Below are positions 23,885-39,717 of a stretch of DNA of 41,778 nt, one piece after another. Positions within the stretch are counted from its first letter, which is position 1, and each line of letters opens with the position of its first letter. Made by a program: the position numbers and the translations under genes. Below the pieces are notes generated by a model, which was not told the origin of the DNA, ran no database searches, and was given only the letters and a program-made list of their open reading frames with translations. Source of the stretch: Gammaproteobacteria bacterium (GTDB lineage: Bacteria; Pseudomonadota; Gammaproteobacteria; Steroidobacterales; Rariloculaceae); assembly GCA_035760685.1 (NCBI GenBank), contig DASTSM010000098.1:1-41778 (forward strand), read 5' to 3'.

Positions 23885-25052
23885 GCTCTCGATAGCCGCG
23901 CAGCTGCCGCGCGAACTCCTCGAGCGCCGCGATACCGCTCCCTTCCGCGTCGGCGCACCAAGCCTGAAGGCGTGCGAGCATCTCGTGCTGCGTTTTCGCC
24001 TGCTGAGTCCAGAGGTCCTTGAGCCGCTGCCGGAACTCGTAGATCGTCTGAAGCGTGTGATTCGCCTGGAGCGCTTCCTTGAGATGCCGGCGGTTCGCCG
24101 CGTCGAGCGCGAGGTGCTCCTTCGAGATGAGCCTGCGCACGCGCTGAATCCTGCGCTTGGCCTCCCCCTGCAGGTAGCGCGCCTCGGCGCGCAGCACGGG
24201 GCGGACGACCTCGGTGCCGTACAGCTTCAGCACGTGAAAGCGGTTCGCGACCACGGCGCGCAGCATCTCCATGTCGATGACGTGCGAGCCCGCGAGGAAC
24301 GAGGTCTTCGGCGCCGTGCGCCGGACCGTAGCGAGGCCGAGCGACGCGAGGATCCTGATGTAGAGCCACCCGATGTCGAGCTCCCACCATTTGTTGGAGA
24401 GCCGCGCCGAGCTGCCGTAGGCGTGATGGTTGTTGTGGAGCTCCTCGCCGCCGATCAGGATGCCGAAAGGCACGATGTTGCGCGAGGCGTCCTGCGTCTC
24501 GAAGTTTCGGTAGCCCCAGTAATGACCGACGCCGTTGATGACGCCGGCGGCCCAGAACGGGATCCAGACCATCTGAACAGCGAAGATGACCGCGCCCGCG
24601 ACGCCCCCGAACAGCAGCAGATCGGCGACGAGCATGACACCGAGCCCGAGGAAGCGATGCCGGCTGTACACTTTGTGCTCGACCCAGTCGTCGGGCGTAC
24701 CGGCGCCGTAGGCGGCGATCGTCTCCGGGATCATGGCCTCGTGCCGGTACAGGAACGTCCCGCCGAAGAGCACTCGCCAGATGCCCTCCTGCTGAGGGCT
24801 ATGCGGATCGTTCTCCGATTCGCATTTCGCGTGATGCTTGCGGTGGACCGCGACCCACTCGCGCGTGACCATGCCCGTCGTGAGCCAGAGCCAGAGCCGA
24901 AAGAAGTGCGCGACCGCCGGATGGAGGCTCAACGCGCGATGCGCCTGGTGGCGATGCAGATAGATCGTGACCGAGGCGATCGTCACGTGCGTGAGCGCGA
25001 GCGCGGCGACGATGTATCCGACGACCGAAAGATTCAGCAATCCGTCCGACAA
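23874..25052 (-). CDS. Membrane fatty-acid (acyl-lipid/acyl-CoA) desaturase, DesA-like delta-9 type
   Basis: 392 aa. Three histidine boxes are present: HRHQAH, HRKHH and HNNHH. The N-terminal half is hydrophobic. A long helical C-terminal extension is present, as I recall for Pseudomonas DesA-type enzymes. Confidence 0.88.
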   Translation of the reverse strand: MSDGLLNLSVVGYIVAALALTHVTIASVTIYLHRHQAHRALSLHPAVAHFFRLWLWLTTGMVTREWVAVHRKHHAKCESENDPHSPQQEGIWRVLFGGTFLYRHEAMIPETIAAYGAGTPDDWVEHKVYSRHRFLGLGVMLVADLLLFGGVAGAVIFAVQMVWIPFWAAGVINGVGHYWGYRNFETQDASRNIVPFGILIGGEELHNNHHAYGSSARLSNKWWELDIGWLYIRILASLGLATVRRTAPKTSFLAGSHVIDMEMLRAVVANRFHVLKLYGTEVVRPVLRAEARYLQGEAKRRIQRVRRLISKEHLALDAANRRHLKEALQANHTLQTIYEFRQRLKDLWTQQAKTQHEMLARLQAWCADAEGSGIAALEEFARQLRGYREQAA

Positions 25053-25219: not shown

Positions 25220-26236
25220 ATGCCGGGAGGTGCTTTGATCATCGATTGCCACGCGCACGTGAGCGCGCCGAAAGCGTACTGGGCGTTCAAGGCGCTGCTG
25301 CTCTCGCACCGTGGCTCCCACGGCCGGGCCGGCCTCCGCCTGACCGATGCCGAGATCCTCGAGGCGTGGAATGCCAAGGAGATGGCTCCGGCCGGGCACC
25401 TCGACCACATGCGGGCCTGCGGCATCGATATGCAGTGCATCTCGCCCCGCCCTTTTCAGATGATGCATTCCGAGAAGCCCGCGAAGATCGTCCACTCTTG
25501 GACCGAGGAGACGAACAACGTCATTCATCGCAGCTGCCGCTTGATGCCGGACAAGTTCTTCGGCATCGCGGGGCTCCCGCAGGCGGCGGGCGACCCCATC
25601 GAGAGCTGCCTGCCCGAGCTCGAGCGCTGCATCAAAGAGCTCGGCTTCAAGGGCTGCCTGTTGAATCCCGATCCGTTCGAGAACGGCGGCGCAAAGGCGC
25701 CGCCGCTCGGCGATCGATACTGGTATCCGCTCTACGAGAAGCTCGTCGAGCTCGACGTTCCGGCACACTTGCACGCGACCAGCTCGCGCGAGCCCGAGCG
25801 CGAGCCGTATACGCTGCACTTCATCAACGAGGAGACGACCGCCGTATTCGGACTCGTGAGCTCCTCCGTGCTCGAAGACTTTCCCGAGCTCAAGATCCTC
25901 GTCTCGCACGGCGGCGGCGCGATGCCCTATCAGCTCGGGCGATTCGACTCGAGCTCGATGCGTGGCACGCGCGGCCGCTTCCGCGACCGCATGCGGCGGC
26001 TCTACTTCGACACGGTGCTCTACACGAAGGACGCGCTCGAGCTGCTCATCAAGACCGTCGGCGCGGATCGCGTGCTCTACGGCGCCGAGTGCCCGGGCGT
26101 GGGCTCGGTCGTCGATCCCGCGACCGGGCACACGTTCGACGACATCGTCCCGCAGATTCGGGCGATCGAATGGCTCTCGGACGAGGACAAGGCCGGGATC
26201 TTCGAGCACAACGCCCGGCGTCTCTTCAAGCTCTAG
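25220..26236 (+). CDS. ligJ: 4-oxalomesaconate hydratase (LigJ-type amidohydrolase_2)
   Basis: 338 aa. There is extensive recognisable similarity to Sphingobium LigJ as I remember it: IIDCHAHVSAP, ISPRPFQMMHS, GLPQ, GFKGCLLNPDPFENGGAKAPPLGDRYWYPLYEKLVELDVPAHLHAT, LHFINEET, VSHGGGAMPYQLGRFD, LYFDTVLYT and ECPGVGS. An alternative TTG start at 25235 would give M-IIDCH. Confidence 0.85.
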   Translation: MPGGALIIDCHAHVSAPKAYWAFKALLLSHRGSHGRAGLRLTDAEILEAWNAKEMAPAGHLDHMRACGIDMQCISPRPFQMMHSEKPAKIVHSWTEETNNVIHRSCRLMPDKFFGIAGLPQAAGDPIESCLPELERCIKELGFKGCLLNPDPFENGGAKAPPLGDRYWYPLYEKLVELDVPAHLHATSSREPEREPYTLHFINEETTAVFGLVSSSVLEDFPELKILVSHGGGAMPYQLGRFDSSSMRGTRGRFRDRMRRLYFDTVLYTKDALELLIKTVGADRVLYGAECPGVGSVVDPATGHTFDDIVPQIRAIEWLSDEDKAGIFEHNARRLFKL

Positions 26237-26269: not shown

Positions 26270-26944
26270 ATGAACCGGACGGCCGATGCTTCCCTCGTCG
26301 CGCGTCTCGAGATTCTGGACAGCTGCGCGGTCTCGGACGCGCTCGACTCGCTGGGCCTGCCGCCGGCCGTCGCGGGCATCGCGCCTCTCTCGCTGCGCAA
26401 GCGCATCGCGGGCCCGGTCAGAACCGTCAAGCTCGGCAGAGAAAAGCCGGCCGCCGGGCCCGTCAGGCATCTCGGCACGGCCGCCATAGAAGCCGCCGCG
26501 CCGGGCGACGTCATCGTCGTCGCGCATTCCTCGGGCGTCGAATGCGCGGGCTGGGGCGGAGTGCTTTCGAGCGCGGCGCTGATCCGCGGCGTCTCGGGCG
26601 TCGTCGTCGACGGCCCCGCGCGCGACGTCGACGAGGCCGCGGCCCTCGGCTTCCCGATCTTCGCGCGCTCGGCGGACCCGCGCACGGCCCGCGGCCGCGT
26701 CTACGAGCAGGACTTCGACTGCCGCATCGAGATCGCGGGCCTTTCCGTCGAGCCCGGCGACCTCGTCGTCGCCGATTCGACGGGCGTCGCTTTCATCCCG
26801 AGCGCTTCCGCCGCGGAGATCGTGCGCCGGGCGGAGCGCGTCGCCGCGCGCGAGCGGCTCATGGTCGAGGCGCTCCGGCGAGGCGAGCGCGTTACGGAGG
26901 TGGTCGGGCGCGACTACGAGGAGATGCTCGACCGGCTCGAGTGA
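26270..26944 (+). CDS. RraA-family protein, probable 4-carboxy-4-hydroxy-2-oxoadipate / HMG aldolase (LigK-like)
   Basis: 224 aa with an RraA-fold pattern: SCAVSDALD, PGDVIVV, GG.L...A...G..G.VVDG..RD, FPIFAR and EPGDLVVADSTGVAFIP. The aldolase assignment rests on adjacency, 33 nt downstream of ligJ. Confidence 0.7.
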   Translation: MNRTADASLVARLEILDSCAVSDALDSLGLPPAVAGIAPLSLRKRIAGPVRTVKLGREKPAAGPVRHLGTAAIEAAAPGDVIVVAHSSGVECAGWGGVLSSAALIRGVSGVVVDGPARDVDEAAALGFPIFARSADPRTARGRVYEQDFDCRIEIAGLSVEPGDLVVADSTGVAFIPSASAAEIVRRAERVAARERLMVEALRRGERVTEVVGRDYEEMLDRLE

Positions 26945-26951
26945 GCGCTCG

Positions 26952-27965
26952 TCAAGTCCACGCAATGAAGCCCTGCGCCGTGCCGGTCCCGGCCTCGGTG
27001 CGATAGCACGGCACGTAGTCGATGAGCTCGCCCTCGAGCGACGTCTGAAACAAGCATCCCGACGCGGAGACCCAGTTCAAGAGCTCCGACGTCCCATCCT
27101 TCATGTACGCAGGATCGATGCCGCGCAGAAACCGCTCGTCGCGCCGCTCGATCGCGCCGATCAGCTCGCGGTCGAAGTCCTCGTTGATCACGAAGTGAGT
27201 CATGCCGCCCGATCCGACGACGGCGACGCGCACGTCTCGGTCCCAGTCCGAGATCAGCGAGCCCACGAGCCGGCCGAGATCGAAGCACCGCCACGGCCGC
27301 GGCTGATTCGGCGGAAAGAACGTGTTCGTGATGATCGGCAGCATCGGCACGGCGCGGTCGCGCATGACGCGCCGCAAGATGTACGCGAACGCGTGCGGCG
27401 TGCCGACGTGGTGATGCTCGGCGGGATACTCCGGCCAAGCGTCCGAGGCGGCGAAGTCCCATCCCTGCTCGATGCCGCGGTCGAGCAGGCGCCGCGCGAG
27501 GTCCGCCAAGCCCGGATACTCGGTGCGCGTCTCGGGCCTGTTGGCCCACTCGGACTCGCGTATGCCGGGCGGGAGCCTTGCCGCGCGCTCCTCGGCCAGC
27601 GGGCCGTTCCAAAACGTCTCGCCGTAGTAAACCGTGTAGGCCGGCTGGAGCGCGGGCAGCACGAGCTCGCGCTGGTCGTTGCCGAAGACGACGCAAACGT
27701 CGGGGGCGGCGTCCGCCCAGATGTCCGCGACTCGCGCGATCGCGGCCTGGCACGCGGCGTGGTTTCGCGTTCTCGCCTCGAGCGTCGCGCGCTCCGCGAG
27801 TCGCTCGCCCGCGCGAAGCTCGACGAGCTCGTCGAACGTGTAGCGCTTGCCCTTGAACCAGTGGCTGCGGGAGCGATCGGCCGGCACCCGCAGCATCCAC
27901 TCCTCGGGAGTGGTGTTGAGCTGCGGTCCGTGCGTCGTCCAGAGCCCCAGCACGATTCTTGCCAT
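26952..27965 (-). CDS. Class III extradiol ring-cleavage dioxygenase (LigB superfamily), divergent
   Basis: The ATG at 27965 (MARIVLGLWTTHGPQL) lies inside track ORF 26952..28037. LigB-like landmarks: the N-terminal THGP, PDVCVVFGNDQ (LigB has ..YNDH), HHVGTPHAF and VVGSGGMTHF. It is convergent with the ligK-like gene, with stops 8 nt apart. Confidence 0.72.
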   Translation of the reverse strand: MARIVLGLWTTHGPQLNTTPEEWMLRVPADRSRSHWFKGKRYTFDELVELRAGERLAERATLEARTRNHAACQAAIARVADIWADAAPDVCVVFGNDQRELVLPALQPAYTVYYGETFWNGPLAEERAARLPPGIRESEWANRPETRTEYPGLADLARRLLDRGIEQGWDFAASDAWPEYPAEHHHVGTPHAFAYILRRVMRDRAVPMLPIITNTFFPPNQPRPWRCFDLGRLVGSLISDWDRDVRVAVVGSGGMTHFVINEDFDRELIGAIERRDERFLRGIDPAYMKDGTSELLNWVSASGCLFQTSLEGELIDYVPCYRTEAGTGTAQGFIAWT

Positions 27966-28104
27966 GGCCGGATCTCGCTTCGAGGAATCCGCTGCAAGTG
28001 TACCGGACGAGAGCGCGAATCGCGGGCCCGCGCCCATGGCAGCCAGGAGGCCCGGGTCGGGAAGCCGGGCCGCATCTTTTAGCCCGTACCGAGATAGGAA
28101 TCAG

Positions 28105-28127
28105 AAAATGGGGTCTGACCCCATTTT
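28105..28127. terminator. Bidirectional terminator-like palindrome AAAATGGGGTC-T-GACCCCATTTT
   Basis: Perfect 11-nt arms are flanked by an A-run and a T-run (T-run continues to 28130). It lies downstream of the six-gene minus-strand operon. Confidence 0.5.
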
Positions 28128-28162
28128 TTTGTTTGGGCTAGCCCGTGCCAGAAGGAAATTGG

Positions 28163-28200
28163 GGTCTGACCCCATTTTCGGAAATGGGGTCAGACCTTTT
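28163..28200. terminator. Perfect 15-bp hairpin (GGTCTGACCCCATTT-TCGG-AAATGGGGTCAGACC) followed by TTTT
   Basis: I checked all 15 pairs by hand, 28163-28177 against 28182-28196. It begins 14 nt below the lower (stop-codon) end of the 28210..28764 gene on the minus strand. The T-run is on the plus strand, so it may mainly insulate against antisense read-through. Confidence 0.5.
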
Positions 28201-28209
28201 GGGGTTGGG

Positions 28210-28764
28210 CTAGCCCGTGCCGAGATAAGGAATCAGGCGCCCGAATATGAGCACCAAGGTCCAGAGCAGTATGGACATGAACCCGACGGCCTTCGCGGGC
28301 AGCGGCGGATCTGCATTCGGCGGAACGGCGGCCAGCATCGGGCCTATCTTCCGCCAATAGATGAGCGCATTGATGCCCGCGAGCAGCACGCAAATCATCT
28401 TGAGCTGGAACGAGATGTTGATCGCGTAGCGATGCGGATCGCCGAAGCAGAAGATGATGCCGGTCAAGAGATTCAGGCCGAAGCCGATGAACGCCATCGG
28501 CAACATGCGATGGATGCTCAACGAAGAGATGACCGGATGCTGGACGCCCATGAGCCGGAGGTCCATGACGAGGATCGAGCCGAAGAGCAGCGAAAGGCCG
28601 ATGTAGTGCGTGATCTCGAGCGTCGGCCACGTTTGCGAATAGTCGAGCGCGAGATGACTCAGCCAAGTCGTCTGCATCCAATCCATCACCGGATTGAGAT
28701 GCTTAACGGTATCGGGGCTCAGGAGCCCCGACTGAGCCGAGTTCAGATGCGAAAGAAAGCTCAT
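28210..28764 (-). CDS. Integral membrane protein, unknown function (paralogue of 28774..29253)
   Basis: 184 aa with about 4 hydrophobic helices. It ends GRLIPYLGTG, and the neighbouring protein ends GRLIAYLT. It contains THYIGLSLLFGSILVMDLRLMG; the neighbour has TIHALGMGIMTGLSWFISLRVLG. It resembles DUF6644-type proteins, from memory only. Confidence 0.75.
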   Translation of the reverse strand: MSFLSHLNSAQSGLLSPDTVKHLNPVMDWMQTTWLSHLALDYSQTWPTLEITHYIGLSLLFGSILVMDLRLMGVQHPVISSLSIHRMLPMAFIGFGLNLLTGIIFCFGDPHRYAINISFQLKMICVLLAGINALIYWRKIGPMLAAVPPNADPPLPAKAVGFMSILLWTLVLIFGRLIPYLGTG

Positions 28765-28773
28765 GGGGTCACC

Positions 28774-29253
28774 CTAGGTCAAGTAGGCGATGAGCCGGCC
28801 CGTCACGATCGCGGCGAGCCAGAAAAAGATCGCGAAGCCTGCGACGATGCGCGCCGACTGCGGAAGAACTACGGCGCTACCGGCCGGCTCGCCGACGCGG
28901 CTGACGGCCGTCTGCAGATAGGCGATGCTGATCGCCCCGATCAGCACGAAGGCCATCTTCGTCAGATACGGAACGTTGTGTACGTAGTTCGAAGCCGCTT
29001 GCGAGGTGAAGAGCGCGCCGCCGGAGATGAAGTTGATCCCGAAGCCGAACCACGAGATCGCAAACAGCGGCCGAAGATAGGAGATCGGGATCATCGGGAA
29101 GCGGCCGAGGACGCGCAGGCTGATGAACCACGATAGGCCGGTCATGATGCCCATGCCGAGGGCGTGTATCGTCAAGATCGTCGGGTAGGCGACGGACGAC
29201 GTCCGCACCCAGTCCGCGAACGAAGTCGCCTCGAGCCACATGAAAAATTCCAA
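28774..29253 (-). CDS. Integral membrane protein, unknown function (paralogue of 28210..28764)
   Basis: 159 aa. The TTG start at 29253 lies 7 nt after AGGAG; the ATG at 29241 is an alternative. It has four hydrophobic segments. The downstream paralogue starts 9 nt after its stop. Confidence 0.75.
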   Translation of the reverse strand: MEFFMWLEATSFADWVRTSSVAYPTILTIHALGMGIMTGLSWFISLRVLGRFPMIPISYLRPLFAISWFGFGINFISGGALFTSQAASNYVHNVPYLTKMAFVLIGAISIAYLQTAVSRVGEPAGSAVVLPQSARIVAGFAIFFWLAAIVTGRLIAYLT

Positions 29254-29350
29254 GGAAGTGCTCCTGTGGGAGGATAAATCGGCGACGGAGGTTAGCTTTA
29301 GACAGGCGGGAAGTCCAGTGCCGGCGATGCGCTCCCGAGTAATCTCCAGT

Positions 29351-30076
29351 CTAGCTTCCGGGTTGCTCTCCTCGGTGGCGACTGCGGATGTACGCGGTCA
29401 GGAGATCGATCTCCGTCGGGCTCAGCTTTGCCCCGAAGGCCGGGCTCTCCGATTGCTCGCCGCCGCTGATGACGCGCCTGACGTTCATCATCGAGTCGCC
29501 GTGCTCCCAGTAGCTGTCCGTCAAGTCCGGGGCGCCTTTCGTGGTGTCGCCCGTTCCGTCCTCGCCGTGGCAGGCCGCGCAATGCTCGGTGAACAGCATT
29601 TTGCCGCGCTTCTGGTAGTCCGTCGGCTGCGCGCCGGCGCTTGCGGAGAGGGATTGGACGTAGCTCACGAGCTGACCGACGTCGACCTCGCCGAGCTTGC
29701 TCTCGCGCATGGGCGGCATGACGCTCTTGCGGCCCTGCGCGATCGTCGTCCGGATCGCATCCTCGCTATCGCCGTAGTTGTAGCGGCCGGCTACGAGGTC
29801 GACGACGCCGCGCGACGCCCGCCCGTCCTCGCCATGGCAGGACCCGCAGTGGGTCAGAAAAAGGCGGTTGGCGAGCTCCATGGCGGTTGGATTCGCAGTC
29901 AGCTCGGCGACAGGCTGCCGGGCATAGGCTTCGCTTTCGGCGCGGAGCTGCTGCGGAGATTCGGCGACTCGCGCCGCGGAATCGCCGCCGCCTTGGGAGC
30001 AGGCGGCCGCGAGCGCGGCTCCGGCGACGGCGAGCGCGCGGCAAAGGCGCGCGCTCGAGCGTGTGGAAGCTCCCAT
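29351..30076 (-). CDS. Dihaem c-type cytochrome lipoprotein (CcoP-C-terminal-like)
   Basis: The ATG at 30076 lies in frame inside track ORF 29351..31030. The lipoprotein signal is LAVAGAALAAAC|S. There are two CxxCH sites, CGSCHGEDG and CAACHGEDGTGD. The GAPDLTDSYWEHGDS...ISGG context resembles the dihaem domain of cbb3 oxidase subunit III. Confidence 0.85.
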   Translation of the reverse strand: MGASTRSSARLCRALAVAGAALAAACSQGGGDSAARVAESPQQLRAESEAYARQPVAELTANPTAMELANRLFLTHCGSCHGEDGRASRGVVDLVAGRYNYGDSEDAIRTTIAQGRKSVMPPMRESKLGEVDVGQLVSYVQSLSASAGAQPTDYQKRGKMLFTEHCAACHGEDGTGDTTKGAPDLTDSYWEHGDSMMNVRRVISGGEQSESPAFGAKLSPTEIDLLTAYIRSRHRGEQPGS

Positions 30077-30084
30077 GGAACCGG

Positions 30085-31947
30085 TTATTGACAGAGCGTC
30101 GGGGTTACGCAAATCGAATCCAGCGTCCTGCCCGCCGGCGGCGTGGGCAGGCCTCGCTCCTCCATGAGCTTCCTGATCAATGCGGCCGTCTCGGGATGCG
30201 CGACGGCCGACTGCACGCCGACGCGCACGAGGCCGTCGGCATAGTCGATCGCCTGCCACGTGACGCCTGCGAGCTTGTGAATGCTGTCGCGGCTGCCGAT
30301 GTCGTGCGTCGAGAGATCCGCGCCGTGGTCGACGAGCAGCTGCACGACGTCGCTCCGGCCCTTGTGCGCGGCGCCCATGAGCGCCGTGCGGCCGTCGAGC
30401 GTGTCTTGGGCATTGACGTCGGCGCCGAGATCCACGAGGTACTTGACGGTCTCGAGCGTCTGCTTCGGCGACCACTCGTACGTCACGCCTTCGACCCAGC
30501 CGATGCCGGACGCGACCATGAGCGGCGTCACGTTGTAGTCCGTCGGGATGTTTGGATTCGCGCCATGCTCGACGAGCAGCTTCATGAGCACGAGATCGCC
30601 GGACTGCGCGGCGCGCAGGAACGGTGTCGCGCCCTCCTCGTAGAGCCACTGGTGCGTGAAGATCGTGCGTGTCTCCGTGCTCGACTTCATTCGCATGTTC
30701 GGATCCGCGCCCTTCGCGAGCAGCAGCTTGATGAAGTCGAGATGGTCCATGTCGGGCTTGCGGACCGGATAGTCGCCGCCCTCGATGTTGCGGTTGTCCG
30801 TCGCGATGTAGAGCGGCGTCCAGCCGCCCTTGTTGGCGATGTTCGGATCCGCGCCGTGATCGAGCAGATATTTGCCGAGCTGGTAGTACCGGTTCTGGGC
30901 CGCGGTCAGCAGCGGCGTCCAACCGTATTCCGTCGTCTCGTTGACGTCCGCGCCGGCCTCGACGAGCGCCTTCGTGGACTCGATGTCGCCCTGACGCGCC
31001 GCGAAGACGAGCGCCGTCAGGCCGCCCCACTTGTCCCGGCTCCGGGTCTGCGGCAAGGGCGGCGCGAACTCGTTTTCGCCGTTGTCGACGCGGGCAGAGG
31101 CGCCGCCGCCGTCGCCGTCGTCCCCGCCGACATCGCCGGCATCGCCGGCGTCGTCCGCGGCATTGTCGTTGCCCGCGGCATTCGCGCGCTCCGCCTGGCG
31201 CTGCTTCGGCGAGCCGTTCGGATCGACGCTATCGGAGATGTCGTTATCGCTGAAGTCGACCTTGCCCTCGCCCACCTTCTTGGCGTCGACCCTGCGCCCC
31301 GCCTGACCGACGCCGCGCTCGGCCTCTTCGATGCGCGAGCGCGCGGAAGGCGCGAGGTAAGGACCCCGGCCCGGCGCGATCGGATCGGAGCGCGCCGCGA
31401 GATCCGCGCCGTGCTCGACGAGGAGCTTGACCGCCTCGGGATTCGAGTACGCGGCGGCCCACATGAGGGCCGTCGTGCCGCGCAGCTTCTCCTTGGCGTT
31501 GACGTCGGCTCCGTGCTTGAGCAGAACGTCGAGCGCCGCCGTGTTGCCCGTGCGCGCCGCCATCATGAGCGGCGTCTCGCCGTGCTGGAACGTCTCGTTC
31601 GCGTCGGCGCCGGCCGAGAGCAGCAGCTCGATGAGCTTCGCATCGCCGCTCTGGCTCGCGAGGAACAGCGGCGTCACGCCTTCCTGATTGGCGGCCTTCG
31701 GATCCGCGCCGGCCTTGATGAGCGCTCGCGCGGCGTCGAGGTCGTCGAGATAGGCGGCCCAATGCAGTCCCGTGGCACCGTCCGCCTGCGGGGCATTGAC
31801 GTCGACGTGCTGGGCCAGAAGCTTCGCGAGGAGCGCTTCGTCCTTGTTCATGACGGCGTCCGCGACCTCGCTCGCGGCGAGAGCCGTCCCGGCGGCGCCG
31901 AGACCGAGCATCAGCGCGACACCCGCTATCAATCGCTTGTTGGCCAC
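30085..31947 (-). CDS. Secreted ankyrin-repeat protein with central acidic low-complexity insertion
   Basis: The GTG at 31947 lies 8 nt after GGGAG, in frame inside track ORF 30085..32508. The signal peptide is VANKRLIAGVALMLGLGAAGTALA. There are about 4 + 5-6 ANK repeats (G.TPLH/L.A......v..LL..GAD.N pattern). They are separated by ~100 aa rich in D/G/A (NAAGNDNAADDAGDAGDVGGDDGDGGG). Confidence 0.9.
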   Translation of the reverse strand: MANKRLIAGVALMLGLGAAGTALAASEVADAVMNKDEALLAKLLAQHVDVNAPQADGATGLHWAAYLDDLDAARALIKAGADPKAANQEGVTPLFLASQSGDAKLIELLLSAGADANETFQHGETPLMMAARTGNTAALDVLLKHGADVNAKEKLRGTTALMWAAAYSNPEAVKLLVEHGADLAARSDPIAPGRGPYLAPSARSRIEEAERGVGQAGRRVDAKKVGEGKVDFSDNDISDSVDPNGSPKQRQAERANAAGNDNAADDAGDAGDVGGDDGDGGGASARVDNGENEFAPPLPQTRSRDKWGGLTALVFAARQGDIESTKALVEAGADVNETTEYGWTPLLTAAQNRYYQLGKYLLDHGADPNIANKGGWTPLYIATDNRNIEGGDYPVRKPDMDHLDFIKLLLAKGADPNMRMKSSTETRTIFTHQWLYEEGATPFLRAAQSGDLVLMKLLVEHGANPNIPTDYNVTPLMVASGIGWVEGVTYEWSPKQTLETVKYLVDLGADVNAQDTLDGRTALMGAAHKGRSDVVQLLVDHGADLSTHDIGSRDSIHKLAGVTWQAIDYADGLVRVGVQSAVAHPETAALIRKLMEERGLPTPPAGRTLDSICVTPTLCQ

Positions 31948-31988
31948 GTTCTTCGCTCCCTTTACCCTCGCATCGACCGCTCGGCGGC

Positions 31989-33380
31989 TCAGCTCAGCTC
32001 GGAGATGGCGTCGATGCGCCCGGTGCTGTCGCCGAACTTGTCGAGGTGAATGTCGAACAAGTCGAGGACGCTGAGCAGCAGGTTGCCCGTCGGCACGGTC
32101 TTCGACGGGAACGGCAAGTGCCGGTTGCCCTTGAGCTTGCCGGAAGCCCCGCCGATCAGCACGTGCGGCACGTCGTAATGCAGATGCTGGTTCGAGTTGC
32201 CCATGTCGGAGCCGTACATCAGCAGCGAATGGTCGAGCAGCGTGCCCTCGCCCTCTTGGATCTTGCTGAGCTTGTCGGCGAGATACGCGAGCGTCGACAC
32301 GTGGTATCGATTCAGCTTCGCGTAGACCTTGATGCGGCCCGGGTCCTCTGCGTGATGCGATCCGCCGTGGAAGCTGATCGTCGTGCCGCTCTCCGGGAAC
32401 ACGCGTCCCGTGAGATCGCGCGCATAGAGAATCGTCGCGACGCGCGTGATGTCGCCTTGGAACGCGAGCGCGAGCAGATCGTAATGCAGCTTGATGTGCG
32501 TGTCCCACGACTCGGGCACGCCGACCGGAGCCGGGATGTCGGGCGCCGCCGTCGACGCTTGCGCGGCGATCTGCAGGCGCCGCTCGAGCTCGCGGACGTC
32601 GTCGAGGTACTGATCCATGCGGTTCTTGTCCGCCGACGGAAGATCCGCCTTGAGGCCCTTGAGGCTCTCGGCCACGGAATCGAGGATGCTGCGGTTCTGC
32701 TCGCGCCGAGCGGCGCGCTCCTCGGCCGTGCCGCCGTTGCCGAACATGCGCTCGAACACCGTCTGCGGATTGATCTCCATGAGCAGGGGCCGGCCCACGA
32801 GGATCTTGTTCGAGTTCCCGGTGCCGACCCAGACGGGCTTACCCCAGGAGATCGTGTTCGTGTAGATGCAGCTGTAGCCCTCGCCGCAGCCGCTCGAGTT
32901 CGCGCCGGGATCCTCGACGGCGAGCTGGAGGGACGGCAGCAGGTTCTGCTGGCCGATCTTCTCGGCGATGAGCTGATCGATCGTCACGCCGTTGTAGATG
33001 TCGGCGCCCGTGGTCTTTCTCGGCTTCGTCGCGGACAGGTACGAAGCCGCGACGAAGTGATCGGCGCCGGTCACGCCCTCCGGCGGCTCCGCGGCCTGCG
33101 ACCACATTCCGCTCGTGATCACGACCTTGTCGCGGAACGGCTCGAGCGGCTCCCAGAGGTAGGGGAACTTGAAGTTCTTGTCCGTCGAGTCCGGCACCCA
33201 GTAACCGGGCGCGGCCCCGTGCGGAACGAAGGCGCCGAGGAAGCGCGTAGGCGGCGCATCGGCCGCATACGCGACGGAACGGAGAGCAGGCACCATCGAT
33301 TCCAAGAACGGCAGCGCAATGGCCGCGCCCGCCCCGCGCAGAAAAGTCCTTCGCGGAATTCGTTTCTTGGTGATGAACAT
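31989..33380 (-). CDS. DUF1552-family protein with Tat signal
   Basis: 463 aa, with GAAGGAGA 8 nt upstream of the ATG. The N-terminus MFITKKRIPRRTFLRGAGAAIALPFLESM is the characteristic DUF1552 start. The C-terminus is FGDSTGRIDAISELS. Confidence 0.85.
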   Translation of the reverse strand: MFITKKRIPRRTFLRGAGAAIALPFLESMVPALRSVAYAADAPPTRFLGAFVPHGAAPGYWVPDSTDKNFKFPYLWEPLEPFRDKVVITSGMWSQAAEPPEGVTGADHFVAASYLSATKPRKTTGADIYNGVTIDQLIAEKIGQQNLLPSLQLAVEDPGANSSGCGEGYSCIYTNTISWGKPVWVGTGNSNKILVGRPLLMEINPQTVFERMFGNGGTAEERAARREQNRSILDSVAESLKGLKADLPSADKNRMDQYLDDVRELERRLQIAAQASTAAPDIPAPVGVPESWDTHIKLHYDLLALAFQGDITRVATILYARDLTGRVFPESGTTISFHGGSHHAEDPGRIKVYAKLNRYHVSTLAYLADKLSKIQEGEGTLLDHSLLMYGSDMGNSNQHLHYDVPHVLIGGASGKLKGNRHLPFPSKTVPTGNLLLSVLDLFDIHLDKFGDSTGRIDAISELS

Positions 33381-33471
33381 CGCCTCTGTCTCCTTCTCGT
33401 CTGGTTCGTCGTCTCGTCTGGGCTCGTCGCTTCCTAGCTGGGTTCGCGAGCTCCTCGCCTCGGCCGTCGTC

Positions 33472-35970
33472 TCAGTCGGTCAAGCTCGCCTTGGCCGCCA
33501 CGTCCGTCGAAGCCACCGTCTCCTTCTCTGCCTTCGGATTCTGCTGCGTCAACTCCTTGAGGCTCTTGTCTCCGAGCTTCATGTTCTCCCGGAACGGCTG
33601 GCTGTCGACCACGGCCATGATCATCGACTCTAGGCTGTAGTCGTCCTTCGCCGACTCCCGCACGACCTTCCGCACGACCGGCTCGTCGTAGTACTCGATC
33701 CCGCGGCCGAGAGCGTACGTCATGAGCTTCTCGGCGAAATGCACGAGATACTGCTGCTTGTACTTGAGCAGCCAATTGCGCAGGTCGACGGCGCCGTTCA
33801 CGGTCTGGCCGTCGTACATGACGACCTTGGTGTCGATCGGATTGCCGTGATCCGTCGTGCGCTCCTTGCCGATCGCGTCGAACGCCTCGAGCACGAAGCC
33901 GAACGGCTCCATCATCGAATGGCACGAGGCGCAGACGGGATTCTGATGGTGCATCTCCATCTGCTCGCGCATCGTCGGCGTGTGCGCGTTGCCGGCCGCG
34001 TCGCTCTCCTGCGTCTTCAGCGCCGGAACGTTGGGCGGAGGATCGGGCGGCGGCACGCCGATGAGCTCGGCCATGACCCACTTGCCGCGCTGCACGGGCG
34101 AGGTTCGCCCGGGCTGCGAGGTCGCCGTCAGGATCGCGCCCTTGCCGAGCAGGCCGCGCCGGTCGTCGAACTGGTCGCCGAGCTTGATGCGCCTGAATTG
34201 GCTGCCCTGGACGCCGGGGATGCCGTAGTGCTTCGCGAGCCTGTCGTTCACGAACGTGTAATCGGCGTCGAGCAGGTCGACGACGCTGCGGCCCTCGCGC
34301 AGCACGCTGTCGAAGAAGAGATCCGCCTCCTCGACGAACGCCTGGCGCAGGTTGTCGTCGAAGTCGGGGAAGTCGGCGACGACCGGCTCGTGGCCTTGCA
34401 GCGACCGCAGATCCAGCCACTGACCCGCGAAGTTCTTCGTGAACTCGAACGACTTCGGGTCCTGGATCATGCGGCGGACCTGCTTCTCGAGCACCTTCGG
34501 GTCGCTGAGCTTGTTCTGCTCCGCGAGCGACAAGAGCTCATCGTCCGGCATGCTGCTCCAGAGGAAGAACGAGAGCCGAGAGGCGAGCTCGAGGTCGTTG
34601 ACCTGATAGAGATCGCCCGGCGCGACGTTCTCGGGCTCCTTCTCGATGCGGTAGATGAAGCGCGGATCGGCGAGCACGCGTTGCAGCGCCGCCTGGATCC
34701 CGGCGTCGAAATCGCCGCCCGCCTTGCGCGCATTCTCGTAGAAGTCCATGAGCGTCGAGACGTCCTGCTCGCTGTCGAAGCCGCGATAGGCGCGGTGCGC
34801 GAGCTTCGCGACGATCTGCTCGGCGCAGGCGCGCTCGTCGGCCGGCGTGTCGGCGCTCTTCGGGTTGCAGACGTACAAGCGGGCCTTGGCCGGCGAGTCT
34901 TCCGCACCCTTCGCGTCGAACGGCCCGTCGATGCGCACGCTGCCGACGTGCGGATAGAACGTCATGCCCGGCAAGCCGCCCGTCTCGATCGTGCTGCGCT
35001 CGAACTCGTGGTCGAGATCGAGCAGCGGCGCGTAGTTGCTCGCGAGGAACGTCACGCCGATCTTGTGCTGGCCGGCCGTGATGGGCAGCTCGAGGTCGAG
35101 CGTCTTGAGATGGCCGTTCTGCCCGCCGAAGCCGCCGAAGGCGCCGCGGTTGAGCCCGAACTCCTTGTCCCAATCGAAGACGTGGACGCGCTTGCCGTCG
35201 ACGAGGATCTCGAGCTGCTCGCCCTTGACCTCGCCGAACGGACGGAAGTTGCCCATGTTGCCGAGGTTCACGGAGTACACCTTGATCGTGTACCGTCCGT
35301 CGACCGGGAAATAGTGGTTGATGAGAATTCCGCCGCGCGTCCCGAACGGCAGGCCCTCGACGTGGTAGTTCTGCGTCGTGTCGGCCGGCACCCGGAACGT
35401 GGTCTGGGTCGGCTGCGTCACGTCGCCGAGCGCCTCGCGGCTGATGCGCCCGGCCGCGGACACATACGCTTCGAGCAGCGCGGTCGACAGGGTCAGCGTG
35501 CCCGCTTGGTTGTCGAATCCGCGGCTCGTGTCGTCCGCGGGCAGGAATTTAGAGGCGTCGAGCTCGATGCCGAGCAGGTCGCGGACGACGTTCTGGTACT
35601 CGGTGCGGTTCAGCCGATGGACGCCCGGCGGCGGCAGAATCGGCTTGTAGTTCGCATCGAGACGATCGACGAGGTAGCTCACGAGCTCGGACCGCGTCTC
35701 CCCATCCGGCCTTCGGCCGTCGCTCGGAGGCATCTGACCCGAGCGCAGCATCTTGACGACCTTCTCCCACGTCGCCGCGTCGGCGCCCACGTGGGCGAGA
35801 TCGAGGCGCTCGAGCGAGAGCCCGGCGACCTGCTCGATGTTGTTGTGGCAGTCGAGGCAATACTTGCTGATGGTCGAGCTGTTCTTTGCCACGAGCTCCT
35901 TCGGAGACGGGCTGCAGCCCGTCAGCGCGATCGCCGCAACGGCGGAGCCAAACAACACGACTCTCTTCAC
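33472..35970 (-). CDS. Haem-c lipoprotein of the DUF1587/DUF1592/DUF1595/DUF1588/DUF1585 multi-domain family
   Basis: The GTG at 35970 follows GGAGGAGGGAG, in frame inside track ORF 33472..36060. The lipoprotein signal is VKRVVLFGSAVAAIALTGC. The haem site is CLDCHNN with SGQMPP downstream. Family landmarks: LNRTEYQNVVRDLLGIELD...GFDNQA, LASRLSFFLWSSMPDDEL, FAGQWLDLRSL, DADYTFVNDRLAKHYGI, SPVQRGKWV and CASCHSMMEPFGFVLEAFDAIG. Confidence 0.9.
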   Translation of the reverse strand: MKRVVLFGSAVAAIALTGCSPSPKELVAKNSSTISKYCLDCHNNIEQVAGLSLERLDLAHVGADAATWEKVVKMLRSGQMPPSDGRRPDGETRSELVSYLVDRLDANYKPILPPPGVHRLNRTEYQNVVRDLLGIELDASKFLPADDTSRGFDNQAGTLTLSTALLEAYVSAAGRISREALGDVTQPTQTTFRVPADTTQNYHVEGLPFGTRGGILINHYFPVDGRYTIKVYSVNLGNMGNFRPFGEVKGEQLEILVDGKRVHVFDWDKEFGLNRGAFGGFGGQNGHLKTLDLELPITAGQHKIGVTFLASNYAPLLDLDHEFERSTIETGGLPGMTFYPHVGSVRIDGPFDAKGAEDSPAKARLYVCNPKSADTPADERACAEQIVAKLAHRAYRGFDSEQDVSTLMDFYENARKAGGDFDAGIQAALQRVLADPRFIYRIEKEPENVAPGDLYQVNDLELASRLSFFLWSSMPDDELLSLAEQNKLSDPKVLEKQVRRMIQDPKSFEFTKNFAGQWLDLRSLQGHEPVVADFPDFDDNLRQAFVEEADLFFDSVLREGRSVVDLLDADYTFVNDRLAKHYGIPGVQGSQFRRIKLGDQFDDRRGLLGKGAILTATSQPGRTSPVQRGKWVMAELIGVPPPDPPPNVPALKTQESDAAGNAHTPTMREQMEMHHQNPVCASCHSMMEPFGFVLEAFDAIGKERTTDHGNPIDTKVVMYDGQTVNGAVDLRNWLLKYKQQYLVHFAEKLMTYALGRGIEYYDEPVVRKVVRESAKDDYSLESMIMAVVDSQPFRENMKLGDKSLKELTQQNPKAEKETVASTDVAAKASLTD

Positions 35971-36067
35971 GCTCCCTCCTCCGTGACGCCTTCCGGTCTT
36001 GTGACTGTCGAGGCGCCGGCGTGTTCCATCCAATCGGCTCGGGAGGAATCCCAATGCCATCGACCAA

Positions 36068-36097
36068 ATGTTACCGTGTTATGCATTCCTACTCCAA
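36068..36097 (-). promoter_or_regulatory. Possible sigma70-type promoter for the six-gene operon (TTGGAG-N18-TAACAT on the minus strand)
   Basis: Hexamers found by eye in the comparatively AT-rich 247-bp region upstream of the 35970 start. There is no independent support. Confidence 0.2.
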
Positions 36098-36217
36098 GCC
36101 GACGGCGCCACGAATTTTGCAATTCGTCGGCGGGAAAAAGCCCGAGTTCACAATTCTTTACGTGCGACCCGCCGCGTCGTTGGAGGTGCAGACAGCACCC
36201 GTATCGGGAGTCCCGCT

Positions 36218-37342
36218 CTAGCGTCGCTCGGAAGCGCGGGGATAGGCGCGCGGGGCGGGTCCGATGTAGTCGGCCGTCGGCCGGATCAGGCGGTTGTCGG
36301 CCCGCTGCTCGATGACGTGCGCCGACCATCCGGACGTGCGCGCGCAGACGAAAACCGGCGTGAAGAGCGGCGTCGGAATCCCGAGGCTGCGGTAAACAAG
36401 CGCGCTGTAGAAGTCGAGGTTCGGGAAGAGGTGCTTCTCGCGCTCTATCAGCGCCTCGATCGCTTCCGCGACCGCGAAGCGCGTTTGCTCTTCCGGCGTA
36501 ACGGCGAGTTCCTTCGCAATTCTTTTGATGATCGGGCTTCTCGGATCGCCCGAGCGGTAGACTGCGTGCCCGAATCCCATGACCTTGGCCTTGCGCGCGA
36601 GCATTTCGCCGACGCCCTCCACCGCGGCTTCGGGCGTAGCGAAGCGATCGATGAGCTCCATGGCCGCCTCGTTCGCGCCGCCATGCAGCGGCCCGCGCAG
36701 CGTTCCGATCCCGGCCGTGATCGCGGAGTAGAAATCGGAAAGCGTCGCCGCGCAGACGCGAGCCGCGAACGTCGACGCGTTGAACTCGTGCTCGGCGTAG
36801 AGGATCAGCGAGACGTCGAAAGCGCGCTCCTGCTCGCGCGTCGGCGCACGTCCGTGCAGGAGCTTCAGAAAGTGCGCCGCGATGCTCGGCTCGTCGCTCT
36901 GCGTCTCGATGCGCTGCCCGGTCGCCGCGTAGTGATGCCAGTAGAGCAGGACGCCCGGCAGCGCCGCGAGCAGCCGGCGCGCGACGCGCCCCTGCTCCGC
37001 GAAGCTTCGCTCGGGCTCGAAGCAGCCGAGCGCCGAGCAGCCCGTGCGCAGCACGTCCATCGGATGAGTCTCGGCGGGGAGGCGCTCGAGGATCTCGCGC
37101 AGCGGCGGCGGCAGACCGCGCGCCGCGCGGAGCTCCGCGCGAAACGCATCGAGCTCGCGGCGCGACGGCAGCTCGCCCTCGACGAGCAGGAACGCGACTT
37201 CCTCGAACGTCGACTTATCGGCGAGCTCCGCGATCGAATACCCGCGATAAGTGAGCCCCGTGCCTTCCTTGCCGACCGTGGCGATTTTCGTGCTGCCGGC
37301 GGCGACGCCGCGGAGGCCCGCGGCGGACTTAGCTTCCGTCAT
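36218..37342 (-). CDS. prpC: 2-methylcitrate synthase
   Basis: 374 aa from the citrate-synthase family: [34 protein letters not shown] and GFGHAVY. Size and context, immediately after prpB, indicate PrpC. AAGGGAG lies 8 nt upstream of the ATG. Confidence 0.9.
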
Positions 37343-38225
37343 TGTTTTCGCTCCCTTGCGCGAACAGCTCGTCGAGCTTGCGCTCGTACGCGTAGTAGTC
37401 GAGCACGGCGTAGAGCTCCTCGCGCGTCTGCATGGTATCGACGACGCTCGCCTGCGTGCCCTCGTCGATGATCGCGGCGTAAACCCGCTCGGCGGCCTTG
37501 CTCATGGCTCTGAACGCCGACAGCGGATAGAGGATCATCGCGACGCCCGCCTCCGCGAGCTGCTTGGCCGTGAACGAAGGCGTGACGCCGAACTCGGTCA
37601 GGTTCGCGAGCACGGGAACCGGCATCGCCTGCGTGAACGCGCGGTAGTGCCCGATCTCGCGCAGCGCCTCAGCGAAGATCATGTCGGCGCCCGCCTCCGC
37701 GTAGGCCGCACAGCGCGCGATCGCGGCGTCGAGCCCTTCGCGCGCGAACGCATCCGTGCGCGCCATGACGACGAAATCGTCGTCGCTACGGCCGTCGACG
37801 GCCGCCTTGATGCGATCGCACATCTCGCTCGCCTCGACGATCGCCTTGTTCGGACGGTGGCCGCAGCGCTTCGCCTGCGCCTGATCCTCGATGTGCATGC
37901 CCGCTGCGCCCGCGCGCACGAGCTCGCGCGCCGTTCGCGCGATGTTGAAGGCGCTGCCGAAGCCCGTATCCGCGTCGACGAGCAGCGGCAGCGGCGTCGC
38001 GCCCGTGATCCGGCGCGCGTCCTCGAGCACGTCGGCCTGAGTCGTGATGCCGAGGTCCGGCAGCCCGAAGGAAGCGTTCGCGACGCCGGCGCCGGAAAGA
38101 TAGACGGCGCGAAAGCCGGCGCGGCCGGCGAGCAGCGCGCAGTAGGCGTTGATCGTGCCGGCGATTTGCAGCGGCGGCGCGTCGTGCACCTCGCGCCTGA
38201 AGCGCCGGCCTGGGCTGTCGGTCAT
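37329..38225 (-). CDS. prpB: Methylisocitrate lyase
   Basis: The ATG at 38225 lies 8 nt after GAAGGAA, in frame inside track ORF 37329..39065. PEP-mutase/isocitrate-lyase pattern: [30 protein letters not shown] and ARTDA. It overlaps the prpC start by 14 nt. Confidence 0.9.
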
Positions 38226-38244
38226 CGCCGCCGTTCCTTCGCGC

Positions 38245-39717
38245 TCACTGCCGCGCGCCTTCGGGCATGAACAGCTCCACGAGCTCGTCGACGGGCGTCG
38301 CCTCGAGGCGCGGCAGATCGAGACACAGCGACTCGATGCGCTCGATGCGCTCTTCGCCGAAGCGCGCGGCGAGGTTGCGCCGGAACTTCTCGAGCAGCAG
38401 AGGGATGCCTTCCGCGCGGCGGCGCCGGTGCCCGAGCGGGTACTCGACCTCGACGCGCGGGGTCGCCGATCCGTCCTTGAAGAAAACCTGCACGGCGTTG
38501 CCGATCGAGCGCCTGTCCGGATCGAGGTACTCCTTCGAATAGCGCTCGTTCTCGACGACCTGCATCGCGGACCGCAGCGCATCGATACGCGGATCGGCCG
38601 CCGCCTCGTCCTCGTAGTCGTCGGCCGTGAGCCGGCCGCGCAGCAGCGCGACGGCGACCATGTATTGGAGGCAATGGTCCCGATCGGCCGCGTTGGCGAG
38701 CGGTCCCGTCTTGTCGATGATGCGCCGCGCGGCCGCTTGCGTCTCGATGACGATGCGCTCGACGTCGCCGAGCCGCGGGGCGACGTCGCCGTGCAGCGCG
38801 AAGGCGGCCTCGACGGCGGTTTGCGCGTGAAACTCCGCCGGGAACGCGATCTTGAAGAGCACGTTCTCGATGACGTAGCTGCCGAGCGGCCGAGCGAGCC
38901 GGATCTCGCGCCCGCGAAAGAGCACGGGCTCGAAGCCCCAGCCCGGCGCCGTGAGCGCCGACGGATAGCCCATCTCGCCGCGCAAAGCGAGCAGCGCGAG
39001 CCGCACGCCGCGGCTCGCGGCGTCGCCGGCCGCCCAGCTCTTGCGCGAGCCCGTGTTCGGCGCATGGCGATAGGTTCGCAGCGCTCCGCCGTCGAGCCAG
39101 GCGTTCGACACCGCGTTGACGATCTCCTCGCGCGTGCCGCCGAGCAGCCGAGCCGCGACGGCCGTGCTCGCGACGCGCACGAGCAGCACGTGATCGAGGC
39201 CGACCTCGTTGAAGGCGTTGTCGAGCGCGAGCACGCCTTGGATCTCGTGGGCGGCGATGGTCGCCGTGAGCGCTTCGCCCATGCGAAGCGGCGGCCGTCC
39301 CGCGGCGCGCCCGCTTCGCGCGAGGTAGTCGCCGACGGCGAGGATCGCGCCGAGGTTGTCCGACGGATGCCCCCATTCGGCCGCGAGCCACGTGTCGTTG
39401 AAGTCGAGCCAGCGGATCATCGCGCCGAGATTGAACGCGGCTTGGACCGGGTCGAGCTCGTAGCGCGTGCCGGGCACGCGAGCGCCGCCGCGAAGCTCCG
39501 CGCCCGGCACGATCGGACCGAGCAGGCGCGTGCAGGCCGGATAGTCGAGGGCCAGCATCGCGCAGCCGAGCGCGTCCATGAGCGTATAGCGGGCCATGCT
39601 GCGGGCCTCCGCGCTCGGGGCGGGCGGCGCGAGCACGTAGTCCGCGATGTCGGTCAACAGGGGGTCCGGCGCGGGCCGGCGCGCGTCTCGTGTGCCCCGC
39701 GCCACTGATTGGCTCAT
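38245..39717 (-). CDS. prpD: 2-methylcitrate dehydratase (MmgE/PrpD family)
   Basis: The ATG at 39717 is preferred; the track start at 39750 is TTG. Pattern: [46 protein letters not shown] and [10 protein letters not shown]. Confidence 0.9.

Follow-up and report, generated by a model that had tools for sequence, protein, structure and literature searches.

The question raised by this locus is whether six consecutive genes encode a single periplasmic redox complex or a smaller conserved module with additions. The genes lie on the minus strand, at positions 28210-35970, of a stretch of 41,778 nucleotides (nt) that was analyzed as a whole (the window; contig DASTSM010000098.1 of assembly GCA_035760685.1, from a gammaproteobacterium of the Rariloculaceae), and they begin with a large multidomain haem protein of the PSCyt3/PSD type and a DUF1552 protein, together called the pair. 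Comparison with relatives makes it highly probable that the cluster is composite, with a three-gene core (g1-g3, the pair plus an ankyrin-repeat protein, together the trio) and three add-on genes (g4-g6), and the locus is worth following up as a three-gene module rather than as a six-gene operon. Taken as a whole, the favoured reading, in which this composite cluster encodes a periplasmic metalloenzyme coupled to haem and assisted by an ankyrin protein, is given about even chances.

Gene order and its conservation

The six genes, in transcriptional order, are:
33472-35970, minus strand: g1, large haem protein, 832 amino acids (aa); GTG start, with GGAGGAGGG before the start
31989-33380, minus strand: g2, DUF1552 (HXXSHH) protein with a twin-arginine translocation (Tat) signal, 463 aa
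30085-31947, minus strand: g3, ankyrin-repeat protein with a Sec signal, 620 aa
29351-30076, minus strand: g4, CcoP-like dihaem cytochrome c lipoprotein, 241 aa
28774-29253, minus strand: g5, divergent DUF6644 paralogue with ~4 transmembrane segments, 159 aa
28210-28764, minus strand: g6, DUF6644 membrane protein with 4 transmembrane segments, 184 aa

Re-reading of the sequence reproduced exactly the positions and the gaps (91, 41, 8, 97 and 9 nt, in order) given in a preliminary description of this DNA, as well as the co-directional six-gene order without an internal terminator, which recurs in one relative (L093). The g5 gene has a TTG start giving MEFFMWLE, in agreement with its homologues. 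The two largest gaps, of 91 and 97 nt, are without stable structure (z +1.2 and +0.95). With regard to the sequence criteria for an operon, the genes share one strand and short gaps, no internal terminator was seen and a likely terminator stands at the end; the six genes are probably one transcript in this organism. The further claim that every product is exported or membrane-bound was supported by the signal peptides, lipoboxes, Tat motif and transmembrane segments that were found.

Conservation was studied in a comparison set of 80 genome loci and 80 metagenome loci. A DUF1552 alignment was used to scan a single genome of each GTDB species, which gave the genome loci (62-72% identity); they derive from uncultured Gammaproteobacteria (Steroidobacteraceae, Rariloculaceae, Pseudohongiellaceae), Vicinamibacterales and Terriglobia. 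When the six window proteins were compared with these 80 loci by tblastn, g1 and g2 were present nearly everywhere, a full-length g3 orthologue (55-64% identity) in most, g5/g6 in a minority and g4 in none. Gene families were counted, by heuristic gene calls and clustering with a cross-check by tblastn, in the 53 loci that had at least 6.5 kb upstream and at least 6 kb downstream:
Ankyrin gene: 48/53 loci, always on the same strand as the pair
DUF6152: 28/53 loci
F3 (a secreted protein of ~240 aa with no Pfam match): 29/53 loci, often in 2-4 copies
DUF6644: 7/53 loci, of which 3 have it on the strand of the pair
g4: 0/53 loci

A reverse test was made by scanning metagenomes with g3 and counting the neighbours of the ankyrin orthologues, 24 in all, that had flanks of 4.2 kb or more on each side. 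In this case, the pair was adjacent in 20/24, DUF6152 was found in 17/24 and F3 in 19/24, while DUF6644 and g4 were each found in 0/24. The preliminary description had made conservation of the four genes downstream of the pair a test of its model, and this fails for three of them, the ankyrin gene alone being conserved.

The order of the core genes is variable. DUF1552 came after a PSCyt3 gene 67 times (median gap 11 nt), the ankyrin gene after DUF1552 31 times (median gap 56 nt, sometimes with DUF6152 inserted) and a PSCyt3 gene after the ankyrin gene 11 times (median gap -4 nt). That the adjacency survives such changes of gene order is good evidence for functional coupling of the ankyrin gene with the pair, and the three core genes are probably translationally coupled. 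The g3 product has the Sec-type signal and the Pfam ankyrin repeats that had been described, the latter arranged as two repeat blocks with an acidic linker between them. A generic repeat match was ruled out, since the matches beside the pair are full-length, 55-66% identical and position-specific. Judged by sequence and position, g3 is the fixed third gene of a conserved module with PSCyt3/PSD and DUF1552. In two distant members the pair is present and no ankyrin gene was seen on their short contigs.

The dihaem cytochrome and the membrane paralogues

The preliminary description had suggested that the six products are one electron-transfer complex anchored by the two membrane proteins, with the ankyrin protein as scaffold or chaperone. 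In such a model g4 would be the internal wire, and each DUF6644 protein might, for example, give one histidine to a haem b, as in SdhC/SdhD or HemJ. The shared strand, the gaps of 8-97 nt and the lack of an internal hairpin are all in keeping with this model, and so is the order ANK-g4-g5-g6-LigB, which is repeated in the nearest relative, L093, and only there. Even in L093, however, g4 is only 65% identical, against 97% for the C terminus of the ankyrin protein, 79% for g5, 85% for g6 and 88% for LigB. Elsewhere g4 is not found beside the pair at all (0/80 genome loci by tblastn, 0/24 ankyrin-centred metagenome loci). In the next relative with a complete genome (L001; DUF1552 83% identical), a LigB gene on the opposite strand comes after the ankyrin gene and precedes the DUF6644 pair, and the homologue of g4 is found 1.3 Mb away from the trio, beside a gene for a high-potential iron-sulfur protein (HiPIP). 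Other g4 homologues likewise adjoin HiPIP (L092) or a LigB cluster (L094). On this distribution, g4 is a lineage-specific addition.

The g4 sequence has two cytochrome c domains (Pfam) and aligns with CcoP across both haem domains. The likeness to CcoP that had been noted for this two-CxxCH lipoprotein therefore stands, but an identification as CcoP was rejected: g4 scores below the cut-off of TIGR00782 (137.8 versus 179.95 bits), has no ccoNOQ neighbours and lacks FixP_N (PF14715), which is missing from g4 and its clade and present in true CcoP matches. No cbb3 oxidase genes were found among the open reading frames (ORFs) of the window. It also differs from CcoP and cytochrome c4 in that a lipobox (LAAA↓C, with the cysteine kept in 11/11 clade members) replaces the FixP_N anchor of g4, ccoNO genes are missing from the g4 surroundings and haem 2 has no axial methionine. 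The clade is a small group of ~230-aa lipoproteins, and the axial methionine of the second haem (MPAW/MPAF in CcoP) is replaced by cysteine (ECPA) in 8/11 members and by serine in the window protein and its closest homologue (residues ~205-215). Together with a weak match to a SoxA/TsdA-type domain (E 4e-4), this replacement suggests that g4 may have His/Cys or otherwise unusual haem ligation and may not be a plain electron shuttle.

The two membrane proteins agree with the preliminary description in being small, having ~4 transmembrane segments (hydropathy scan) and being paralogous, given a BLASTP match between g5 and g6 with E=3e-14 (25% identity). Assignment to DUF6644 (PF20349) is above the cut-off of 27 bits for g6 (33.7 bits) and below it for g5 (16.6 bits); the profile hidden Markov model (HMM) check of all six families thus succeeded for g1-g4 and g6 and fell short for g5. 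In the family alignment, a histidine of the first transmembrane segment (TM1) is invariant in both paralogue types, a point in favour of the six-protein model, and the invariant residues of g6 are H53, K122, W168 and G175-R176. Weak matches of DUF6644 members (n=27) were to DUF2214 (13/27, best E 7e-4), CopD (5/27, best E 0.005) and HemJ/UPF0093 (1/27, best E 0.03), and although they too point toward the six-protein model, all are far under the gathering thresholds. DUF6644 resembles the CopD/HemJ-type four-helix proteins in these matches, in its ~4 transmembrane segments and in the invariant TM1 histidine. A profile search of the PDB with DUF6644 found no relative, and a literature search on DUF6644 found no paper.

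DUF6644 genes stand beside the trio in three arrangements, in 11/80 loci, including a same-strand run 6152-F3-6644-6644-ANK-PSC3-1552 in four loci (L025, L026, L037, L042). This recurrence makes a loose functional link of the DUF6644 pair to the trio possible, and it also counts for the six-protein model. Set against that model are the low frequency of DUF6644 near the pair (7/53 loci, 0/24 when centred on the ankyrin gene) and the occurrence of DUF6644 pairs alone or with LigB/RraA/amidohydrolase genes in loci without a PSCyt3-DUF1552 pair (for example L085); a single DUF6644 gene also stands beside DUF6152 and cytochrome bd genes, again without the pair (L087). With g4 so rarely at hand and DUF6644 so mobile, a single complex of all six proteins is considered quite unlikely. 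In the favoured reading, g4 may, within this lineage alone, connect the core module with respiration, through the respiratory chain, and g5/g6 would be a floating CopD/HemJ-like membrane module that the core shares with the neighbouring LigB/RraA/amidohydrolase aromatic-cleavage genes.

The genes of that neighbouring set encode an LigB-type extradiol dioxygenase (26952-28037, minus strand), an RraA-like aldolase (26270-26944, plus strand) and an Amidohydro_2 enzyme (25220-26236, plus strand). They form a gallate/protocatechuate 4,5-cleavage-like set, which in relatives occurs with the DUF6644 pair, DUF6152 and g4-like cytochromes.

The DUF1552 protein and its haem partner

The g1 protein carries the Pfam domains PSD3, PSD5, PSD4, PSCyt3 and PSD2 (DUF1587/1595/1592/1588/1585), with scores in that order of 76.6, 57.0, 161.5, 118.0 and 78.2 bits against cut-offs of 23-34. 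The earlier account of an 832-aa lipoprotein with these domains was accurate in that respect, but not in giving it a single CxxCH, as there are two invariant sites. The first, C38xxC41H42, lies in an N-terminal class-I-like cytochrome c domain that has M80 (in AGMMPP) as its axial-Met candidate, and the second, C680xxC683H684, lies in the PSCyt3 domain. Because of the second site, the candidate haem sites of the cluster number four and not three as had been counted. Both motifs and M80 are invariant among 25 orthologues, which argues that the haem is essential, and the C-terminal CxxCH is retained in distant family members at only 34-46% identity. The N-terminal domain matches Cytochrome_CBB3, and the same module type is fused to a pyrroloquinoline quinone (PQQ) dehydrogenase of the window (18962-20815). 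Modules of this type are the electron exit when fused to periplasmic dehydrogenases. A signal peptide and a lipobox (ALTG↓C) are present, with a lipobox-like motif in only 20/57 g1 orthologues. No relative of g1 was detected by profile search of the PDB, and NCBIfam has no model for g1, g2, g5 or g6.

The g2 protein matches PF07586 with 264.3 bits against a cut-off of 30, its HxxSHH motif being FHGGSHH at residues 337-343, and it bears the twin-arginine motif RRTFLRG within IPRRTFLRGAGAAIALPFL. Among 104 diverse members, R11 is invariant and R10 is conserved in at least 90%, and an RRxFL-type motif was found in 65/66 g2 orthologues; the Pfam TAT_signal HMM scores 16.7, under its cut-off of 22.7. 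As the preliminary description had it, g2 is a predicted Tat-exported DUF1552 protein. The family is very large, with 16,138 clusters at 50% identity (E<=1e-3) in an exhaustive HMMER search.

The structure of DUF1552 was modelled with AlphaFold (AF2) from an alignment of 104 sequences (32-93% identity), giving a pLDDT of 90.5 and a pTM of 0.92. A first model, from 40 sequences of at least 67% identity, had a pLDDT of 58 and no significant Foldseek matches, and was discarded. When the deeper model was compared with the PDB by Foldseek, the top ~50 matches all belonged to the alkaline-phosphatase superfamily (E down to 1.1e-4, probability up to 1.0). They comprised S1 sulfatases, phosphonate monoester hydrolases (PMH), LtaS, iPGM, phosphopentomutase, YejM, an EptA-like enzyme and alkaline phosphatase, and the best of them were 6s21_B, 7oz9, 4upk, 2vqr and 1e33, each with a Foldseek probability of 1.0. 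On the strength of the model, an alkaline-phosphatase-type fold for DUF1552 is likely. The idea that Tat export implies a redox cofactor lost ground here, as the predicted fold is of the alkaline-phosphatase/sulfatase type and is no known fold of redox-cofactor proteins.

Eight residues are invariant among the 104 members (H108, D135, Q136, D234, D251, E266, H338 and H342), and H399, D310, T312 and R313 are nearly so. No serine, threonine or cysteine is invariant, S150, S231 and T312 being conserved in at least 90% only. When the secondary structure is read against the template of the superfamily, H/N54 at the end of strand 1 would correspond to the metal-binding aspartate position of the superfamily, and H108, in a helix (106-109) corresponding to the one after strand 2, would occupy the presumed nucleophile position. 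H338 and H342 lie one helical turn apart and may resemble the DxxxH metal ligands, and the sequence (D/N)395-x-N-x-H399, which follows a strand, may resemble the DH/DN pair. The model also has a long helical insertion (~205-308). DUF1552 looks like a very divergent member of the superfamily that has a candidate metal site rich in His and Asp and lacks the canonical nucleophile.

One interpretation of these data is that DUF1552 catalyses hydrolysis or transfer, in the manner of the sulfatases, phosphoesterases or phosphonate-ester enzymes of the alkaline-phosphatase superfamily, with g1 as a substrate-binding, sensing or maturation partner whose haems carry no catalytic electrons. The fold match to S1 sulfatases and PMH would fit this, as would the consensus GxHARxxxxxLTG around H108, which resembles the sulfatase signature CxPxRxxxLTG, and the occurrence in Verrucomicrobia, according to the literature, of PSCyt genes near sulfatases and with CBM domains. 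Tat export is used by some members of the superfamily, such as PlcH, and was counted in the same direction. S1 sulfatases and PMH are the closest structural matches of g2 and share its periplasmic location. Unlike them, however, g2 has no Cys/Ser-x-Pro-x-Arg formylglycine motif (the sulfatase CxPxR is absent) and no invariant nucleophile, the presumed nucleophile position being taken by a histidine, and it has the additional insertion; nor do those enzymes have an obligatory haem partner. Sulfatase genes were sought in the fetched loci for a profile-profile comparison with DUF1552 and none were present. The invariance of the two CxxCH motifs and the methionine of g1, and the electron-exit type of its N-terminal domain, also speak against haems without a catalytic role, and a plain hydrolase is considered unlikely. 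Were it true, it would still annotate a very large protein family, as a hydrolase with a binding partner.

The redox mechanism preferred for the core module is put forward tentatively, at a little under even chances. In this mechanism, g1 would be a periplasmic or lipid-anchored two-haem PSCyt3/PSD protein and DUF1552 the catalytic metal subunit acting on a periplasmic substrate. The haems of g1 would carry electrons to or from the DUF1552 centre, so that the chemistry would be oxidative and not canonical ester hydrolysis. The ankyrin protein g3 would stabilise or mature g1, as AnkB does for the catalase KatB and Cj1386 for KatA. In those systems (AnkB-KatB in Pseudomonas and Xanthomonas, Cj1386-KatA in Campylobacter), an ankyrin gene beside that of the haem enzyme is reportedly needed for full activity or haem loading, and ankyrin-like partners of haem enzymes are said to have been treated by Howell in 2000, Flint and Stintzi in 2015 and Pan in 2018. 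Common to them and to g3 is an ankyrin-repeat protein encoded beside a haem protein. AnkB/Cj1386-type proteins are small (~200 aa) and have catalases as partners, whereas g3, at 620 aa, would partner a haem protein of the c type with Ccm-attached haem.

Several observations weigh against the favoured reading. With respect to the fold, the Foldseek TM-scores are just 0.3-0.42 at ~10% identity, 0/40 DUF1552 members match the Pfam families of the alkaline-phosphatase clan (Sulfatase, Metalloenzyme, Phosphodiest, DUF1501) at E<=10, and PDB profile searches with shallow and deep DUF1552 alignments returned nothing. With respect to the chemistry, we know of no alkaline-phosphatase-superfamily enzyme with redox chemistry, and for that reason the DUF1552 fold alone favours hydrolysis or transfer. 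With respect to the trio, DUF1552 and the ankyrin gene occur in five low-GC loci where a PSCyt3 gene is missing over 10 kb, the ankyrin gene is absent from five loci of the closest architecture (F6-F3-6152-F3-PSC3-1552), and 4/24 ankyrin orthologues lie away from the pair.

The PSCyt3/PSD-DUF1552 gene pair has been described, as uncharacterised, in Planctomycetes and Verrucomicrobia (Studholme et al. 2004; Kamneva et al. 2012; He et al. 2017), and He et al. agree with the preliminary description that it is a recognised pair without an assigned function. The pair in the window has the same g1 Pfam set and order, with DUF1552 directly downstream. It differs in being single-copy and in belonging to a sub-clade of Gammaproteobacteria/Acidobacteria, and also in its company of an ankyrin third gene, DUF6152 and F3, none of which is mentioned in those papers. 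In the literature searched, no function was given for DUF1552 or its partner, and the ankyrin third gene, the DUF6152/F3 neighbourhood and the DUF1552 fold assignment were not described; both the trio with its ankyrin gene and the assigned fold seem to be new.

A second known arrangement, the PSCyt2/PSD1 (DUF1549/DUF1553)-DUF1501 pair, also sets a large haem-motif multidomain protein beside a Tat-signal protein, although the Pfam families are others. DUF1501 is a member of the alkaline-phosphatase clan, in parallel with the structural prediction for DUF1552. The PSCyt/PSD proteins and their DUF1552/DUF1501 partners have been a "known unknown" since 2004, and DUF1552 by itself has dozens of copies in some genomes of the Planctomycetes-Verrucomicrobia-Chlamydiae (PVC) group. 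In the window and its relatives among the Gammaproteobacteria and Acidobacteria, the arrangement is simpler and single-copy, with a fixed ankyrin partner, a confidently assigned DUF1552 fold and a short list of recurrent secreted partners. What had been a vague puzzle regarded as planctomycete-specific thereby becomes open to tests of whether DUF1552 is a redox metalloenzyme, whether both haems of g1 are loaded and whether the ankyrin protein is a haem-protein helper.

Secreted partners and other features of the window

Two further secreted families, DUF6152 and F3, are more frequent beside the trio than g4 or DUF6644 and had been missed in the preliminary description. They are also present in the window, as unlinked copies 21 kb from the cluster and as a fusion:
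6897-7724, plus strand: F3, unlinked copy
7744-8151, plus strand: DUF6152, unlinked copy, with F3 upstream of a TonB-dependent receptor gene (8469-11762)
20812-21816, minus strand: DUF6152-F3 fusion, between two PQQ dehydrogenase genes

This fusion ties the two families together in function, and F3 is paired with DUF6152 in many genomes. The invariant residues of F3 are a Cys pair and R, E and D, and a permissive Pfam scan with F3 gave nothing. In DUF6152, the sequence A↓HHS directly after the signal peptide is invariant among 26 sequences, as are H56 and E76, so that the invariant set includes the NPH histidine and a glutamate. Mature DUF6152 would begin with His-His, which resembles an N-terminal histidine-brace metal site. 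DUF6152 repeatedly adjoins DUF6644 and often sits between the DUF1552 and ankyrin genes.

It could be that these families belong to a copper-linked periplasmic oxidative system in which DUF6152 is a small Cu protein and the DUF6644 pair handles copper, g1 reducing the Cu centre and DUF1552 and F3 acting on the substrate. A precedent for the role of g1 is Cbp2D of Cellvibrio japonicus, a secreted protein with DUF1587 (PSD3) and cytochrome c domains that is a candidate bacterial electron donor for lytic polysaccharide monooxygenases (LPMOs). Growth on cellulose depends on Cbp2D, an LPMO receives electrons at its histidine-brace copper from one of the Cbp2D haem domains, and Cbp2D was the sole member of the PSCyt/PSD-type families found to have experimental data. 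The proteome of a lignocellulose community included a CBM2 protein of Cellvibrio that carries a DUF1592 annotation. Unlike g1, Cbp2D has CBM2, YceI-like and FN3 domains and no reported DUF1552 partner, and a profile search with g1 gave no PDB match to the solved X183 domain of Cbp2D.

Besides this precedent, the copper-linked system would account for the frequency of DUF6152 (28/53, 17/24) and F3 (29/53, 19/24) beside the trio, the position of DUF6152 between the DUF1552 and ankyrin genes, its invariant A↓HHS, H56 and E76, the DUF6152-F3 fusion and the recurrent vicinity of DUF6644, which matches CopD weakly. On the other hand, DUF6152 matched no copper-protein family in a permissive Pfam scan, its weak matches being to OB-fold or beta-barrel families, and no relative was found in a profile search of the PDB; the histidine brace is read from sequence position alone, and the window copies of DUF6152 and F3 are distant from the cluster. 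Such a system is therefore thought very unlikely.

Beyond the favoured reading itself, there is an outside chance that DUF1552 is the first redox-active member with an alkaline-phosphatase fold, its His-ligated metal centre being wired through the two-haem PSCyt3 protein, and that with the ankyrin protein, DUF6152 and F3 it forms a widespread periplasmic oxidative system acting on recalcitrant organic matter. The substrates might then be lignin- or humic-derived compounds or esterified polymers. Such a system would parallel, in the periplasm, the LPMO/Cbp2D electron-donor pairing, and would account for the PSCyt/PSD expansions of Planctomycetes and Verrucomicrobia.

The ends of the cluster are marked by two further features:
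35971-36217, minus strand: 247 nt from prpC to g1, likely promoter region
28101-28203, minus strand: hairpin/palindrome block 3' of g6, likely terminator or repetitive extragenic palindromic (REP)-like element

The palindromic terminators that had been noted at the end of the cluster were found again as hairpins 3' of g6, where 126 nt fold with -57.9 kcal/mol (z -7.9) and 15-nt perfect arms, followed by a weak T-tract. The last codons of g6, GGCACGGGCTAGCCC, are locally duplicated, with two further downstream copies (28040-28215), and copies of the palindrome ATGGGGTCAGACCCCAT, absent from the rest of the window, interleave with these repeats. The array at 28040-28215 looks like a REP-like or slippage-generated terminator array. 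Upstream of g1, a palindrome with 7-bp arms (ACGAATT-gcaa-AATTCGT, 36110-36127) in a region of lower GC content could be an operator, and with arms of this length could also be due to chance. No match to the sigma-70 promoter consensus was found in 27800-36400, and an Rfam scan of the whole window gave neither a riboswitch nor a small RNA, the region upstream of g1 being without an Rfam family.

Directly upstream of g1 lie prpC, prpB and prpD of the 2-methylcitrate cycle (36218-39750, minus strand). This arrangement is kept in L001, L082, L089 and L090 and probably reflects synteny within the lineage rather than a link in function. The PQQ-dependent dehydrogenase genes that flank the DUF6152-F3 fusion (18962-20815, minus strand; 22024-23778, plus strand), one of which has an N-terminal cytochrome c domain, have counterparts near the trio in 10/53 loci, notably in Vicinamibacterales. 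A 392-aa ORF (23874-25052, minus strand) combines an N-terminal FA_desaturase match with a C-terminal DDE_Tnp_ISL3 match, and the recurrence of this combination in L001 and L082-L084 shows it to be a conserved protein rather than an artefact of assembly. Finally, a 1150-aa ORF (1062-4514, plus strand) joins FecR, TPR and a TonB-dependent-receptor beta-barrel, either as an unusual fusion or, possibly, because the ORF was called too long.

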